Below, one piece after another: positions 7,403-46,079 of a stretch of DNA of 64,000 bases (its first letter is position 1; each line of letters starts with the position of its first letter). Location of the stretch: the NCBI RefSeq assembly GCF_003019035.1, contig NZ_CP027447.1. One strand, given 5' to 3'. The translations under genes were made by a program, and so were the position numbers. This DNA comes from Escherichia coli. Its GTDB lineage: Bacteria; Pseudomonadota; Gammaproteobacteria; Enterobacterales; Enterobacteriaceae. Below the pieces are notes generated by a model. It had not been told where the DNA came from. It saw nothing but the letters and a program-made list of their open reading frames with translations, and made no database searches.

Positions 7403-7475
7403 GAATTTTTTTCTAGCGGTCGAAATACTCCCCTTCCTCGTTGCTGTTCGTGTCATTAAACCAAAAAATAAATCG

Positions 7476-7502
7476 TAAACTTTGCCCCGCTTACGCCGAT
7501 AA
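7476..7502 (+). promoter_or_regulatory. sigma-28 promoter of fliDST
   Basis: TAAACTTT-N11-GCCGATAA about 45 nt upstream of fliD. Confidence 0.7.
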
Positions 7503-7544
7503 CCTCGATATTCGTTCTATACGTCGCATGATTAAGGAATCTAT

Positions 7545-8960
7545 ATGGCTAGTATTTCAACGCTTGGGGTTGGGTCGGGGCTGGACTTAAGCAGCATCCT
7601 TGACAGTCTGGAAGCGGCAGAAAAATCTACCCTGACGCCGATATCAAAACAGCAAAGCTCTTATACCGCGAAACTGAGCGCCTACGGGACGCTGAAAAGC
7701 GCACTAGAGAGCTTCCAGACAGCCAACACAGCACTGAACAAAGCCGATTTATTTACCGCCACCTCAACTACCAGCAGTTCATCGGCTTTCAGCGCCACCA
7801 CCACGGGCAGCGCGATTGCCGGGAAATACACCATTAGCGTTAGCCAACTGGCGCAGGCACAGACGCTGACCACCCAAAATAGTCAAAAAGACAGTAAAGC
7901 TGCCATCGCCACCAGCGATAGCGTACTAACCATCCAGCAAGGTGGCGGTAAAGATCCGGTCACGATTGATATCAGCGCGGCTAACTCGTCACTTTCCGGC
8001 ATTCGCGATGCCATTAACAACGCCAAAGCTGGTGTCAGCGCCAGTATCATCCATGTGGGTAACGGCGAGTATCGTCTGTCCATCACTGCTAACGATACGG
8101 GCAGCGATAACGCTATGAAACTTAGCGTCAGCGGCGACAGCGCCCTGGAAAGTTTTATGGGTTACAACGGAACGTCGGGTGATAGCAGCAATGGCATGAT
8201 TGAAAGCGTCACTGCGCAAAACGCCAAACTGACAGTCAATAACGTTGAGATTGAAAACAGCAGTAACACTATCAGCGACGCGCTGGAAGATATCACCCTC
8301 AACCTGAATGACGTCACCACCGGTAATCAGACACTGACCATCAGTAAAGACACATCCAAAGCTGAAAATGCGGTTAAAGCGTGGGTGGATGCCTATAACT
8401 CATTGCAGGATACGTTCAGCAGCTTAACCAAATACACCGCTGTCGATGCCGGAGCAGAGAGTCAGGACTCCAGCAATGGCGCATTACTCGGTGACTCCAC
8501 ACTGCGTACCATCCAGACTCAGCTTAAAACCTTGCTCGCCAATACTCACAGCAGTTCAAACTATAAAACGCTGGCACAGATTGGCATTACCAGCGATGCC
8601 AGTACCGGCAAGCTGGAAATCGCGACCGACAAACTGCAAACGGCGCTAAAAAAAGATGCCGCTGGCATCAGTGAAATGTTTATAGGTGACGGTAAAAGTA
8701 CAGGGGTAACCACCGGCATTAGTAGCAACCTAACCAGTTGGCTCTCTTCCACCGGGATAATCCAGGCCGCAAAAGATGGCGTCAGCAAAACGCTGAATAA
8801 TTTGACCGACCAGTACAACGCAGCCAGTGAGCGTATCGATACCTTAATGACGCGCTATAAAGCCCAGTTCACCCAATTAGATGTGTTAATGAACTCGCTT
8901 AACTCCACCAGTAGCTATCTGACACAGCAATTCGACACATCAAATAGCAACTCGAAATAA
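7545..8960 (+). CDS. fliD: flagellar filament cap protein
   Basis: 471 aa, recognised as FliD; divergent from fliC. Confidence 0.95.
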   Translation: MASISTLGVGSGLDLSSILDSLEAAEKSTLTPISKQQSSYTAKLSAYGTLKSALESFQTANTALNKADLFTATSTTSSSSAFSATTTGSAIAGKYTISVSQLAQAQTLTTQNSQKDSKAAIATSDSVLTIQQGGGKDPVTIDISAANSSLSGIRDAINNAKAGVSASIIHVGNGEYRLSITANDTGSDNAMKLSVSGDSALESFMGYNGTSGDSSNGMIESVTAQNAKLTVNNVEIENSSNTISDALEDITLNLNDVTTGNQTLTISKDTSKAENAVKAWVDAYNSLQDTFSSLTKYTAVDAGAESQDSSNGALLGDSTLRTIQTQLKTLLANTHSSSNYKTLAQIGITSDASTGKLEIATDKLQTALKKDAAGISEMFIGDGKSTGVTTGISSNLTSWLSSTGIIQAAKDGVSKTLNNLTDQYNAASERIDTLMTRYKAQFTQLDVLMNSLNSTSSYLTQQFDTSNSNSK

Positions 8961-14272: not shown

Positions 14273-14752
14273 ATGTTCACGATTAAAACAGATGATCTCA
14301 CCCATCCAGCAGTGCAAGCATTAGTGGCTTACCATATTTCCGGCATGCTGCAGCAGTCTCCCCCCGAAAGCAGTCATGCTTTAGATGTGCAAAAATTACG
14401 TAACCCGACAGTGACATTCTGGTCAGTATGGGAAGGCGAACAACTCGCAGGAATTGGTGCGCTGAAGTTGCTGGATGATAAACATGGCGAGCTGAAATCA
14501 ATGCGTACCGCGCCTAATTATTTACGTCGTGGTGTCGCCAGTCTGATTTTACGCCACATTTTGCAGGTCGCCCATGACAGATGCCTTCATCGCCTGAGCT
14601 TAGAAACGGGTACACAGGCTGGATTTACGGCCTGCCATCAACTTTATTTGAAGCATGGTTTCGTTGATTGCGAACCGTTTGCTGATTATCAACTTGATCC
14701 ACACAGTCGATTTTTGTCATTGACGCTATGCGAAAATAATGAATTGCCATGA
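14273..14752 (+). CDS. yedL: GNAT-family N-acetyltransferase
   Basis: 159 aa acetyltransferase fold. Confidence 0.9.
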   Translation: MFTIKTDDLTHPAVQALVAYHISGMLQQSPPESSHALDVQKLRNPTVTFWSVWEGEQLAGIGALKLLDDKHGELKSMRTAPNYLRRGVASLILRHILQVAHDRCLHRLSLETGTQAGFTACHQLYLKHGFVDCEPFADYQLDPHSRFLSLTLCENNELP

Positions 14753-15169
14753 GCCAGACGCAGCACATTCTTGCATTCGACGAGCTGCGCCTTTATTTAT
14801 TATCAGCCGCAAATGTCTTGTCCTTAGACGCTCTTTCCACATGCGCCACAAGAAACCTCTATTCCAGTGACACAATTATGCCTGATTATTTCCCTAGCCC
14901 GGAATATGAATAAAAACATCAAATAAGATGAAATTATCAAAATATTAATGTTGCGTCTGTGGTCGTAACAACAACCGACCTGGTGATGCGTGTTAAAGGA
15001 GACACTCTGATGTTCAGGGGGGTTATCACGTATACAGATCGTGGATGGCAGAAAACTTTCAGAATCAGGTTTCCATTTTAAACCAGAAATTGAGTGAGTT
15101 TGCCCCATCAATGCCCCACGCTGTGAGTTTGGATGTCATTAAACAAGCACAATCAACACGTAACACAAC

Positions 15170-15484
15170 CTACACCTGCATGCTCATCACTTCCTGATAC
15201 GCCGCTACCAGCTTATTACGCACCTGAATCCCCATTTGCATAGAAACTGAGGCTTTTTGCATATCGGTCATCACATCGTTTAGCGCCACGCCGGGCTCAC
15301 CGAGGGTGAATTTTTCTGCCTGGGTACGGGCGGCTGTTTGTGTATCGCTTATGCGATCGAGCGCGGCGTGCAGCTGCCAGGCAAAACTAATGGTCGGTTG
15401 CGGCAGTGATTCCTGCGCACGCGCACTCATCGCCGTGGTCTGTAACTGGCTGATAACCCCTTCAATCCCCTGTATCGCTGACAT
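15170..15484 (-). CDS. fliE: flagellar hook-basal body protein FliE
   Basis: ORF trimmed to [14 protein letters not shown], 104 aa. Confidence 0.93.
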
Positions 15485-15698
15485 TTTCATCTCCCGGATA
15501 ATTTCTGGTAGCAAAGCCTACCAGTAAGTCAATAAGACAAAGGCGCTAAATAGCAACAAAAAAACGGGTTTATTGGCGGATAGAAAAAAACGAAAGCACA
15601 AATAATGGGAGCGTCAATTTTTCGAGTTTGCTGACCCGGGAGTGAGTCTTGTTCCACTTTGCCAATAACGCCGTCCATAATCAGCCACGAGGTGCGCG
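15485..15698. promoter_or_regulatory. divergent fliE / fliF class-2 flagellar promoter region
   Basis: inferred from divergent gene arrangement and known FlhDC regulation; no motif mapped. Confidence 0.45.
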
Positions 15699-20859: not shown

Positions 20860-21983
20860 TTCGCATAGCGCCCTTGATTACCGCTGACGTTGATAACGCC
20901 ACATTGCCTGGCGGCAAAGCCAGCGATGCTGCACAAGATTTTCTCGCGTTGTTGAGCGAAGCATTAACAGGCGAGGCAACAACCGACAAAGCGGCCCCTC
21001 AGTTGCTGGTGGCAACAGATAAGCCCACGGCAAAAGGCGAGCCGCTGGTCAGCGATATTGTTTCCGACGCGCAACAAGCAGATTTACTGATCCCTGTGGA
21101 TGAAACACCGCCTGTCATCAACGACGAACAATCCACATTAACACCGTTAACCACCGCTCAGACGATAACGTTGGCTGCGGCGGCTGACAACAATACGGCA
21201 AAAGACGAAAAAGCGGATGATCTGAATGAAGACGTCACCGCAAGCCTGAGTGCCCTTTTTGCGATGTTGCCGGGTTTTGACAATACGCCCAAAGTGACTG
21301 ATGCACCGTCAACCGTGTTACCGACAGAGAAACCAACGCTTTTCACAAAACTGACTTCTGCGCAACTCACTACAGCACAGCCTGATGACGGCCCCGGCAC
21401 GCCAGCTCAGCCATTAACAGCGCTGGTAGCAGAAGCCCAGAGTAAAGCGGAAGTCATCAGCACACCTTCACCGGTGACCGCTGCCGCCAGCCCGCTAATC
21501 ACTCCACACCAGACACAGCCACTGCCCACCGTCGCCGCGCCTGTCTTGAGTGCACCGCTGGGTTCTCACGAATGGCAACAATCATTAAGCCAGCATATTT
21601 CGCTGTTCACCCGCCAGGGGCAACAAAGTGCAGAGTTGCGTCTGCACCCACAGGATTTAGGTGAAGTGCAAATTTCCCTCAAAGTGGATGATAACCAGGC
21701 GCAAATCCAGATGGTTTCACCGCATCAGCACGTACGCGCCGCCCTGGAAGCAGCGCTGCCGGTACTGCGTACGCAGTTGGCCGAAAGTGGCATTCAGTTA
21801 GGGCAAAGCAACATCAGTGGCGAAAGCTTTAGTGGTCAGCAGCAGGCCGCTTCCCAACAACAGCAAAGCCAACGCACAGCAAACCATGAACCTCTGGCGG
21901 GGGAAGACGACGATACGCTTCCGGTTCCCGTCTCTTTACAAGGGCGTGTAACAGGCAACAGCGGCGTTGATATTTTCGCCTAA
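20856..21983 (+). CDS. fliK: flagellar hook-length control protein
   Basis: 375 aa, Pro/Ala/Thr-rich. Confidence 0.95.
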
Positions 21984-22556: not shown

Positions 22557-23561
22557 ATGGGCGATAGTATTCTTTCTCAAGCTGAAATTGATGCGCTGTT
22601 GAATGGTGACAGCGAAGTCAAAGACGAACCGACAGCCAGTGTTAGCGGCGAAAGTGACATTCGTCCGTACGATCCGAATACCCAACGACGGGTTGTGCGC
22701 GAACGTTTGCAGGCGCTGGAAATCATTAATGAGCGCTTTGCTCGCCATTTTCGTATGGGGCTGTTCAACCTGCTGCGCCGTAGCCCGGATATTACCGTCG
22801 GGGCCATCCGCATTCAGCCGTACCATGAATTTGCCCGCAACCTGCCGGTGCCGACCAACCTGAACCTTATCCATCTGAAACCGCTGCGCGGCACAGGGCT
22901 GGTGGTGTTCTCACCGAGTCTGGTGTTTATCGCCGTGGATAACCTGTTTGGCGGCGATGGACGCTTCCCGACCAAAGTGGAAGGTCGCGAGTTTACCCAT
23001 ACAGAACAGCGCGTCATCAACCGCATGTTAAAGCTGGCGCTTGAAGGCTATAGCGATGCCTGGAAGGCGATTAATCCGCTGGAAGTTGAGTACGTGCGTT
23101 CGGAAATGCAGGTGAAATTTACCAATATCACCACCTCGCCGAACGACATTGTGGTTAACACGCCGTTCCATGTGGAGATTGGCAACCTGACCGGCGAATT
23201 TAATATCTGCCTGCCATTCAGCATGATCGAGCCGCTACGGGAATTGTTGGTTAACCCGCCGCTGGAAAACTCGCGTAATGAAGATCAGAACTGGCGCGAT
23301 AACCTGGTGCGCCAGGTGCAGCATTCACAGCTCGAGCTGGTCGCCAACTTTGCCGATATATCGCTACGCCTGTCGCAGATTTTAAAACTGAAACCCGGTG
23401 ACGTCCTGCCGATAGAAAAACCCGATCGCATCATCGCCCATGTTGACGGCGTTCCGGTACTGACCAGTCAGTACGGCACCCTCAACGGTCAGTATGCGTT
23501 ACGGATAGAACATTTGATTAACCCGATTTTAAATTCTCTGAACGAGGAACAGCCCAAATGA
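22557..23561 (+). CDS. fliM: flagellar motor switch protein FliM
   Basis: ORF 22455..23561 trimmed to ATG at 22557 (MGDSILSQAEIDALL), 334 aa. Confidence 0.95.
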   Translation: MGDSILSQAEIDALLNGDSEVKDEPTASVSGESDIRPYDPNTQRRVVRERLQALEIINERFARHFRMGLFNLLRRSPDITVGAIRIQPYHEFARNLPVPTNLNLIHLKPLRGTGLVVFSPSLVFIAVDNLFGGDGRFPTKVEGREFTHTEQRVINRMLKLALEGYSDAWKAINPLEVEYVRSEMQVKFTNITTSPNDIVVNTPFHVEIGNLTGEFNICLPFSMIEPLRELLVNPPLENSRNEDQNWRDNLVRQVQHSQLELVANFADISLRLSQILKLKPGDVLPIEKPDRIIAHVDGVPVLTSQYGTLNGQYALRIEHLINPILNSLNEEQPK

Positions 23562-23973: not shown

Positions 23974-24339
23974 ATGAATAACCACGCTACTGTGCAATCT
24001 CCCGCGCCGGTTTCTGCTGCGCCACTGCTGCAGGTGAGCGGCGCACTCATCGCCATTATTGCCCTGATCCTCGCTGCTGCCTGGCTGGTAAAACGGCTGG
24101 GATTTGCCCCGAAACGCACTGGCGTTAACGGTCTGAAAATTAGCGCCAGTGCTTCGCTGGGCGCGCGTGAACGGGTTGTGGTGGTCGATGTGGAAGATGC
24201 ACGGCTGGTGCTCGGCGTTACCGCAGGGCAAATCAATCTGCTGCATAAACTTCCCCCTTCAGCACCAACGGAAGAGATACCGCAGACCGATTTTCAGTCG
24301 GTCATGAAAAACTTGCTTAAGCGTAGCGGGAGATCCTGA
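23974..24339 (+). CDS. fliO: flagellar biosynthesis protein FliO
   Basis: ATG at 23974 (MNNHATVQ); ORF-track start 23971 is GTG. Confidence 0.9.
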
Positions 24340-45087: not shown

Positions 45088-45149
45088 TGGCGGAGAGAGG
45101 GGGATTTGAACCCCCGGTAGAGTTGCCCCTACTCCGGTTTTCGAGACCG
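45088..45149 (-). other. 3-prime 62 nt of tRNA-Ser(CGA) (serU-type): prophage att junction
   Basis: minus strand reads CGGTCTCGAAAACCGGAGTAGGGGCAACTCTACCGGGGGTTCAAATCCCCCTCTCTCCGCCA (anticodon loop to CCA end); tRNA 5-prime half absent, match stops at 45150. Confidence 0.8.
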
Positions 45150-45494
45150 ATGATACAGAGTCGAAAAATCAAAGAGTTAAAAATTTTTCTTGGAATAAAT
45201 GTCTTAAAATCGTACACGAAAAATCAATGAATTACATAAATTAAAGAAGAATATTCCAAGCCTTCTTAAGTCCACCACCTGTTTTCAGGTGTCATTCAGA
45301 CGTGATTTGCCCCATATTGGGAAAGCACGCTTTTTTCTCAGCTTATTCCGTTTTGCCTGTGTGTTGAATAATTCCACTGCAGTTATATAAAATCGGTAAC
45401 GGCTGGAAATCATTCAATACTCGCACTATCGGAAGTTCACCAGCCAACCGCAGCACGTTCTTGCATACGACGTGCTGCGGCATAATCCCAATGA

Positions 45495-46079
45495 TTACTC
45501 CCTGACAGGGTTCGTAGGCCACTCAATATCAGGTGCAGTTGATGTATCAACACGGTTCAGCAACACCCGATACTTCTTCCAGGCTTCCAGCAACGAGTTT
45601 TCTTCCTCCGTTGCAATTTCCAGATCTACAGCATCCTGAAGCGGCGCAATATGCTCACTGGCTACCTGCATCAGGCTTTTTTTTGTTTCTTCCGCCTCCC
45701 GGATCCGGAACAGTTTTTCTGCTTCCGTATCCTTCACCCAGGCTGTGCCGTTCCACTTCTGATATTCCCCTCCCGGCGATAACCAGGTAACATTTTCCGG
45801 TAACGGACCGAGTTCAGAAATAAATAACGCGTCGCCGGAAGCCACGTCATAGACGGTTTTACCCCGATGGTCTTCAACGAGATGCCACGATGCCTCATCA
45901 CTGTTGAAAACAGCCACAAAGCCAGCCGGAATATCTGGCGGTGCAATATCGGTACTGTTTGCAGGCAGACCGGTATGAGGCGGAATGTATGCATCACCTT
46001 CACCAATAAATTCACTGGTTCCGGCCAGCAGATTATAAATTTTTATGGTCCGTGGTTGTTCACTCATTCTGAATGCCAT
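45495..46079 (-). CDS. tfa: tail fiber assembly protein (lambda Tfa-like)
   Basis: 194 aa, matches lambda Tfa as I recall it. Confidence 0.9.

Follow-up and report, generated by a model that had tools for sequence, protein, structure and literature searches.

A 39-nt imperfect palindrome occurs twice in a 64,000-nt stretch of the Escherichia coli contig NZ_CP027447.1 (hereafter the window), once behind the chromosomal gene yedL and once behind the tail fibre assembly gene tfa of a prophage. This raises the question of what kind of element is found behind two such different genes and what it may do there. Copy A (14753-14791, + strand) starts with the base that directly follows the yedL stop codon (14750-14752). 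Copy B (45443-45481, + strand) is separated from the tfa stop codon by 13 nt (45482-45494) and not by 14 nt, as first annotated. Both copies lie where the initial annotation had placed them and are identical at 33 of 39 positions (6 of 39 differ) in the same orientation, forming direct repeats 30.7 kb apart. The degenerate 31-mer CGCAGCACNTTCTTGCATNCGACGNGCTGCG matched the window at exactly these two places, even when 3 mismatches were allowed, and had no match in any of 100 dinucleotide-preserving shuffles of the window. With zero occurrences expected by chance, the pair is not a chance likeness.

The two copies stand in different surroundings. Copy A is preceded by yedL (14273..14752, + strand), an ORF encoding a GNAT acetyltransferase (Pfam Acetyltransf_1, E 1e-13) that carries the yedL annotation in matching genomes, and is followed after 380 nt by fliE (15170..15514, - strand). 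The DNA between copies A and B is ordinary chromosome, including fli genes, msrPQ and zinT. Copy B is faced by the converging gene tfa (45495..46079, - strand), an ORF to which lambda tfa is 96% identical and which is the last late gene of the prophage. To its left lie the 3' 62 nt of the tRNA-Ser gene serU (45088..45149, - strand), where homology to prophage-free strains stops at 45149; at the prophage-free locus the tRNA-Ser spans 2190-2279 and the match to the window stops at 2251. The host/prophage junction is located inside serU at 45149/45150, and copy B is situated 294 nt inside the prophage. No intact tRNA was detected in the window by ARAGORN. The lambdoid prophage sits in serU with its tail-fibre end here, and the intact tRNA copy must lie past the right end of the window. 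At the same prophage end, a strong match to the Rfam family IS009 (RF02111; 45538-45700, - strand) falls wholly within the tfa coding sequence and recurs in tfa genes at other loci, so that this 'RNA family' looks like conserved coding sequence.

Copy B is an intact stem-loop, longer than the 9-bp stem with a 13-nt loop that was initially assigned to it. Positions 45448-45459 pair with 45469-45480, forming 12 pairs (11 Watson-Crick and one G-U) around a 9-nt loop (45460-45468), with a folding energy of -21.7 kcal/mol on the + strand (z -4.3) and of -28.7 kcal/mol on the - strand (z about -4). Copy A, an orphan, is a partly decayed version whose core palindrome lies at 14759-14789 and which is followed by the T-rich tract CCTTTATTTATTAT. 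Its + strand fold is weak (-10.0 kcal/mol, z 0.06) and no better than that of shuffled sequences; the - strand folds better (-19.4 kcal/mol, z -2.1). The K-12 allele of copy A is better formed, with -14.7 kcal/mol on the + strand and -24.1 kcal/mol on the - strand. The remark that only copy A is followed by a T-rich run was correct within the window, copy B being devoid of such a tract. The flanks of A and B are unrelated to each other, as had been stated; the sequence to the right of copy A is, however, akin to that found right of the stem-loop in another subclass of the family described below.

A stem-loop family of E. coli lambdoid phages

Copies A and B belong to one stem-loop family of about 35 nt that is carried by lambda-like phages and prophages of E. 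coli, and we hold this membership with higher confidence than the functional reading given further below. A 53-nt query around copy B matched 5,415 of 5,426 complete E. coli genomes at a median of 4 and a maximum of 13 places, and the strains listed with 9-11 places were O157:H7 or other pathogenic isolates. Moreover, 220 phage records matched, including lambda, HK97, phiP27 and Stx1/2 phages, the majority of these matches falling within a stretch of about 93 nt (window 45388-45480). Copies across E. coli genomes and phages number in the thousands. It had been considered that the element might be a local terminator without other copies, but nearly all E. coli genomes carry further ones, and the stem-loop was found after tfa in lambda and after yedL in other strains. 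The thousands of copies and the compensatory stem changes presented below support the proposal of a dispersed structured element; the dispersal is real but not independent, the copies being carried by lambdoid prophages.

REP/BIME elements occur in hundreds of copies per genome and occupy core intergenic regions. A REP/BIME element was excluded, in line with the initial view that the palindrome is not REP, since the family has a median of only 4 and a maximum of 13 places per genome and all copies inspected for their surroundings are in prophage DNA or next to it.

In many members the stem-loop is preceded by a conserved block of about 55 nt (TAAAATCGGTAACGGCTGGAAATCATTCAATACTCGCACTATCGGAAGTTCACCAGCC; 45388..45445, + strand), and the homology of the window to phages starts at this block. 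Units of block plus stem-loop are present in the b region of lambda (24161-24259), in HK97 (20946-21039), in Stx phages and in Qin, and homologues of the block were found in others. The lambda unit is located between ea47 and ea31. Another lambda copy lies directly after tfa, between the convergent genes tfa and ea47, and its stem is distinguished from that of copy B by a C-G to A-T swap and one bulged T. As a consequence of this layout, ea47 in the lambda sequence (J02459) is bracketed by direct stem-loop repeats (22,570-22,610; 24,161-24,259), as if it were an inserted or exchangeable cassette. In K-12, copies reside at the yedL locus directly after the stop codon, in DLP12 between tfaD and ybcY, in Rac about 200 bp from attR, and in Qin, together with the block, about 255 bp from the left end.

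When one genome per species (100,044 species) was scanned for the exact pattern, the only matches were in E. coli and three short metagenome-bin contigs, two with the phage block and the third with the yedL junction, all with E. coli-type flanks. These contigs (L236, L237 and L238, labelled Bacillota, Lachnospiraceae and Collinsella) look like mis-binned E. coli DNA. Because the species-wide scan yielded nothing beyond E. coli and three such contigs, the canonical form of the stem-loop is essentially confined to E. coli. In Gifsy-2, a Hamming-distance scan found no stem-loop copy at up to 6 mismatches in 27. No description of the stem-loop family was found in the literature searched, and the conservative reading is that it represents ordinary biology.

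To avoid bias in the analysis of base pairing, units were gathered by an anchor in the upstream block, outside the hairpin, which resulted in 84 distinct sequences (alignment A1). Changes on both sides were found in 9 of the 12 stem pairs of the hairpin helix, and standard pairs occupied 93.5% of the cells in these 84 units. None of 500 shuffles reached any of five pairing measures, and sliding the partner column by 1-3 positions reduced pairing to 24-62%. Stem variants comprised CCGTGGCACGT/ACGTGCTACGG, CCGCGGTACGT/ACGTGCCGCGG, CCGCCG/CGGCGG, CCGCAATCATGC/GCATGGTTGCGG and CCGCAGTA/TACTGCGG. Given compensatory changes in 9 of 12 stem pairs, the structure is selected, i.e. base pairing is under selection.

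Of 57 distinct hairpins, 35 have a single bulged base in the 3' arm and 22 lack it. Because this 1-nt bulge varies among copies, no reading frame can cross the stem-loop. Several frames looked tolerable when copies A and B alone were compared; a protein-coding fragment was ruled out by the 1-nt indels among members, frames through the element not being conserved. In RefSeq, a 45-aa 'nucleocapsid protein' (WP_071592174.1) is annotated across the K-12 DLP12 stem-loop (L004 2945-3082), and the equivalent ORF of the window is 45343..45522 (- strand). This gene call is probably spurious, its frame being broken by 1-nt indels in other members.

The edge of the tail-fibre module

The position of the stem-loop relative to neighbouring genes is strongly oriented. 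Among 126 instances from viral contigs, a tfa-like gene converged on the stem-loop from the right flank in 62 and was found on the left in none. In other classes the converging gene encodes a Pin-type serine invertase, whose stop codon lies 4 nt (L093) or about 35 nt (L012, L069) from the stem. The + strand genes that end shortly before the stem-loop include a DinI-like gene (after an integrase), GIY-YIG and DUF2971 genes, ea47, ybcY and yedL, and in HK97 the unit is found 6 nt past a strong terminator downstream of int. The right-hand genes of Rac and Qin (ynaM/ynfT, ynaE/ydfK, pinR/pinQ) read away from the stem-loop. In every case the stem-loop marks the boundary between the late tail-fibre module and outside DNA, the place where inward-directed transcription runs up against the late operon. 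One side of this boundary is occupied by the gene that closes the late operon (tfa, or one for a Pin-type invertase), and the other side, on the other strand, by cargo genes, int or host DNA. As a separate feature, the commonest right-flank class without tfa (L005, L009, L030, L048) carries a perfect 14-bp palindrome, CCAATCATGATTGG, about 25 nt past the stem-loop.

The window matches APEC O1 from zinT to the right edge of copy B (query 1-1081), and from the left edge of that copy on it matches the tfa region of lambda (query 1047-1701). When the flanks in 83 distinct contexts were classified, right flanks of at least 14 classes were found combined with the block; the tfa flank occurred with at least 5 classes of left flank and the TTCAACTCC flank with three. 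Since the flanks re-assort freely on both sides, the stem-loop is a mosaic joint. A short conserved sequence of this kind would serve phages as a homology patch for swapping cargo and tail-fibre modules, and a shared patch of 35-95 bp is within the size range usable by phage recombination (Red/RecET recombineering).

This raises the possibility that the sequence has no RNA function and is a linker kept only through Red/RecET-type homologous exchange at shared patches. The re-assortment of flanks on both sides is consistent with such a linker, as are the direct repeats around ea47 in lambda, given that the window prophage resembles the crossover product of such copies, and the confinement of the one-genome-per-species scan to E. 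coli and three E. coli-flanked contigs. However, neutral persistence does not predict 9 compensated pairs of 12 or 93.5% pairing, and we consider a pure linker improbable. Boundary or linker sequences of lambdoid mosaics and moron terminators were reportedly described by Juhala et al. in 2000 and by Clark et al. in 2001. The present element resembles these in being a short conserved patch at module joints with unrelated flanks, where cargo genes each bring their own terminator, but differs in that the patch is a specific hairpin with demonstrated covariation.

The earlier suggestion of a recombination site holds only in the sense of a mosaic joint and finds no support with regard to a site-specific recombinase or att site, the junction in serU being 294 nt off. 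An att core, an invertase crossover site or an integron-like attC might be suspected from the imperfect palindrome with its frequent extra-helical base, from the location near prophage ends and, in some phages, beside invertase genes, and from the arrangement of the window copies as direct repeats 30.7 kb apart. Nevertheless, we regard a recombinase site of any of these kinds as very unlikely. Apart from the position of the junction (45149/45150), the stem-loop occurs in phages of differing integrases and integration sites, it is located at the 3' end of the invertase gene and not at the borders of the invertible segment, and its compensatory stem variation would be intolerable for a protein-recognised half-site. 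Invertase crossover sites (pix/gix/cix/hix) are 26 bp long with a 2-bp core and border the tail-fibre segment in inverted orientation, and tyrosine-recombinase spacers measure 6-8 bp; the arms of 11-12 bp and the spacer of 9-11 nt observed here misfit either geometry.

Two specific versions were rejected. The copies are not attL and attR of the 30.7-kb interval: the serU junction is elsewhere, the intervening DNA is ordinary chromosome and copy A lies outside any prophage here. Neither are they invertase crossover sites: the element stands beyond the invertase 3' end or tfa, each module contains only one, and those of the window form a direct repeat.

Copy A and the yedL-fliE interval

Copy A was initially thought to sit where K-12 carries an integrase remnant. 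This had to be revised, K-12-like strains having kept copy A directly after yedL. Most E. coli have an island that begins about 100 nt past copy A (window ~14891, to ~15022) and contains yedN/espR and DUF5503 genes and, where annotated, an integrase fragment beside fliE. In an O157-like strain the island is composed of espR3, a duplicated yedL 3' end with hairpin, espR4 and an integrase fragment, and in a K-12-like strain it is a DUF5503 pseudogene. The short yedL-fliE layout of the window (about 380 nt, 14792-15170) is common to just 161 of 5,426 complete E. coli genomes. A tandem duplication of the yedL 3' end, hairpin and espR was noted in E. coli ERL04-3476 (L126 7149-10863), and O157-like strains have the stem-loop twice at this locus.

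In K-12-like and O157-like strains, the counterpart of copy A directly behind yedL has a better stem (ACGCAGCACATTCTTGCATTCGACGTGCTGCG); the window allele shows one further stem-breaking change. To the right of copy A, the - strand contains a probable relic of the 3' end of a Pin-type invertase gene (14792..14835), which would formerly have converged on the stem-loop and is strongly decayed here. The - strand reading ends in DKAFPVGDK-stop in O157 and in DKAFPAGDK-stop in K-12, compared to YKKFPVGDK-stop of the invertase in the same register. When the 45 nt after the stem were aligned at the DNA level, the O157 and K-12 alleles scored 12-14, against a shuffle mean of about 3.6 and a shuffle maximum of 10-13; the score of 9 obtained for the window allele is inside the null range of the shuffles. 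Next to fliE, the integrase fragment faces outward, which is the orientation that the far end of a lambdoid prophage should show.

The cargo of Gifsy-2 has a similar layout, with tfa, the type III effector gene sseI and then a convergent YedK-like SRAP gene. This SRAP gene is unannotated (L127 ~7447-8028), is located near the Gifsy-2 end and encodes a product with 79% amino-acid identity to the YedK of the window. No YedL homologues were found in enterobacterial phages. From the sequence comparisons we consider it probable, and more so than the function proposed below for the hairpin, that copy A and about 12 decayed invertase codons are the remains of an old lambdoid prophage between yedL and fliE. 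Under this assumption yedL, and perhaps yedK, would be former prophage cargo, or yedL would have been fused to the hairpin by a deletion. In the strains examined (K-12-like, O157-like and the window), copy A is plausibly kept by now terminating yedL, for which it would use its T-rich tail.

Terminator, message 3' end or small RNA

The best reading of the stem-loop, which we put at a probability of about 0.5, is that of a factor-independent terminator hairpin doubling as a homology patch. Such a hairpin would stop + strand transcription heading toward the tail-fibre genes. At copy A this would be the yedL transcript and at copy B read-in from host or cargo DNA, and termination would prevent antisense transcription from entering the late operon. 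A stable G+C-rich stem-loop is evident from the fold of copy B and from the family-wide pairing, copy A of the window being weak on the + strand. On this strand T occupies on average 3.6 of the 8 nt after the stem and reaches 4 or more in 45 of the 84 units, with typical tails such as GGTTTTTCTTTTT, GGTTTCATTTAT and GGCTTTTTACTTTTT. A U-rich tail on the opposite (-) strand was seen in none of the 84 block-bearing units. A U-tract is present at copy A (CCTTTATTTATTAT) and absent on both strands at copy B and all tfa-adjacent copies; with its U-tract absent, copy B in its present context is probably a weak terminator.

Intrinsic terminators share with the family the G+C-rich stem-loop between converging units and, in about half of the family and at copy A, the T-rich tract. 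In contrast to them, family members have a long loop (9-13 nt) and no U-tract where they adjoin tfa, as at copy B, and the same hairpin is reused in dozens of unrelated gene contexts, often with the 55-nt upstream block attached. Further points count against a terminator: pairing may instead be selected at the DNA level, and a plain terminator leaves the conserved 55-nt block and the loop centre (GCATA) unexplained. A generic terminator scan reported nothing at either copy, its loop limit being 8 nt and these loops being at least 9 nt long. No experimentally mapped 3' end was found for any copy: the Term-seq supplements of Adams et al. 2021 list no 3' ends at the K-12 copies, which is uninformative because cryptic prophages are poorly expressed, and a literature search on the lambda late-operon terminator retrieved nothing.

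If the stem-loop is a terminator only, its value is chiefly one of annotation. It would explain a recurrent unannotated patch in lambda, HK97, Stx phages and four K-12 loci, flag the apparently spurious 'nucleocapsid protein' call, and make it possible to recognise the tail-fibre end of decayed prophages by sequence. By this mark, the yedL-fliE locus would be the scar of an ancient prophage, and yedK/yedL may once have been its cargo. Moreover, it would pinpoint a preferred joint for swaps of cargo or effector genes beside tail-fibre genes.

The strand on which the hairpin may act was approached through its pairs and its folding energy. Among the distinct hairpins, whose sequences are related, G-U pairs outnumbered A-C pairs 34:17 on the + strand, an excess that favours this strand but is suggestive only. 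Mean folding energy across the family is equal on both strands (-17.2 vs -17.3 kcal/mol), and strand assignment by folding energy was dropped, the strands being alike. Against the + strand, copy A folds better on the - strand in both the window and the K-12 alleles.

Alternatively, the - strand might be the active one, with the stem-loop placed at the 3' terminus of the late or tail-fibre mRNA as a barrier to 3' exonucleases or a processing site; it would stabilise the message where antiterminated polymerase fails to stop. In most copies the stem-loop is indeed found 4-70 nt past the stop codon of tfa or of the invertase gene, and the better - strand fold of copy A is pronounced in K-12 (-24.1 vs -14.7 kcal/mol). 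However, no - strand gene ends at the stem-loop in Rac and Qin, where the right-hand genes read away from it, the block-bearing units have no U-rich - strand tail, and for every two + strand G-U pairs there is only one A-C mismatch, which would be a G-U pair on the - strand. Taken together, these observations make a role on the - strand rather unlikely.

An RNA that ends in this hairpin on the - strand is CssrB, for which a Northern band of about 180 nt was reported in Shigella flexneri 301 (PMC3071730). Positions 149-180 of the CssrB model (Rfam RF02799), i.e. all 32 positions of the terminal hairpin, align to the - strand of copy B and of the DLP12 copy, which also agrees with an activity at a message 3' end. 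The match is restricted to the hairpin, though, and with covariance-model scores of 28.2 bits for copy B and 16.2 for copy A it is far under the gathering score of 76. Model positions 1-148 had no match in the window regions of both copies, in DLP12 or in 12 phage loci. CssrB is the only published RNA ending in this hairpin and runs in the tfa direction, opposite to the + strand; apparently it is a single local transcript whose terminal hairpin happens to belong to the family.

Since a plain terminator does not account for the block, a small RNA is considered as a less probable alternative. The block, stem-loop and U-tract could constitute a small RNA gene on the + strand, about 85 nt in length and converging on the late operon, whose product would act in trans, or antisense to read-through late transcripts with formation of an RNase III-type 3' end as in OOP/cII. 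Conservation on the left starts exactly at TAAAAT, about 57 nt before the stem-loop, and runs through GGAAATCATTCAATACTCGCACTATCGRAAGTTCACCAGCC, and the block is kept behind at least 5 unrelated sequence classes upstream of TAAAAT. This -10-like start is maintained whatever lies upstream, even with the HK97 terminator 6 nt upstream, and the window contains the promoter-like site TTGAAT-18-TAAAAT. The layout resembles that of a terminator-ended sRNA, with a candidate 5-bp 5' stem (GCUGG/CCAGC, 97% paired with almost no covariation), a single-stranded conserved core, the hairpin and the U-tail, and the 2:1 preference of G-U pairs for the + strand points in the same direction.

Several observations nevertheless render this small RNA doubtful. 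No conserved -35 is visible among the block-bearing units, one promoter-like site such as that of the window equals the chance expectation, and about 10 of the 84 units have CAAAAT. In one class a DinI-like stop codon lies 11 nt before the block, which may make the block a mere 3' UTR. Copy B of the window is without a U-tail and copy A is without the block altogether. Furthermore, no Rfam family matches the block, which is not a Pas, EcOnc, AgvB or AsxR sRNA, and neither block nor loop sequence was found printed in the literature searched. Among the candidates rejected, PasB of the Pas sRNAs, an IS009 neighbour as here, has a different sequence and, in E2348/69, a location between the tail assembly gene and J; EcOnc, AgvB and AsxR sit at the PR' moron site, and the supplements contained no sequence match.

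A more specific proposal is that block and stem-loop (about 85-95 nt) represent an unannotated sRNA of E. coli lambdoid phages that fixes the 3' end of the read-through late message. The convergent RNA would pair with read-through late transcripts made by terminator-resistant, Q-modified polymerase. On the sequence features available, this appears something of a long shot. If block and stem-loop did form a functional RNA, the best-studied phage would turn out to hold a new conserved non-coding element, with a bearing on how terminator-ignoring late transcription is ended. Among known lambda elements, sib/tI and OOP are RNA hairpins that decide what becomes of convergent or read-through phage transcripts. 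They are likewise structured RNA elements between int/att and the late genes, and the placement of the unit in HK97 recalls lambda tI. In contrast, the stem-loop differs from these elements in sequence and position, the lambda copies being located 3.3 and 5 kb from attP.
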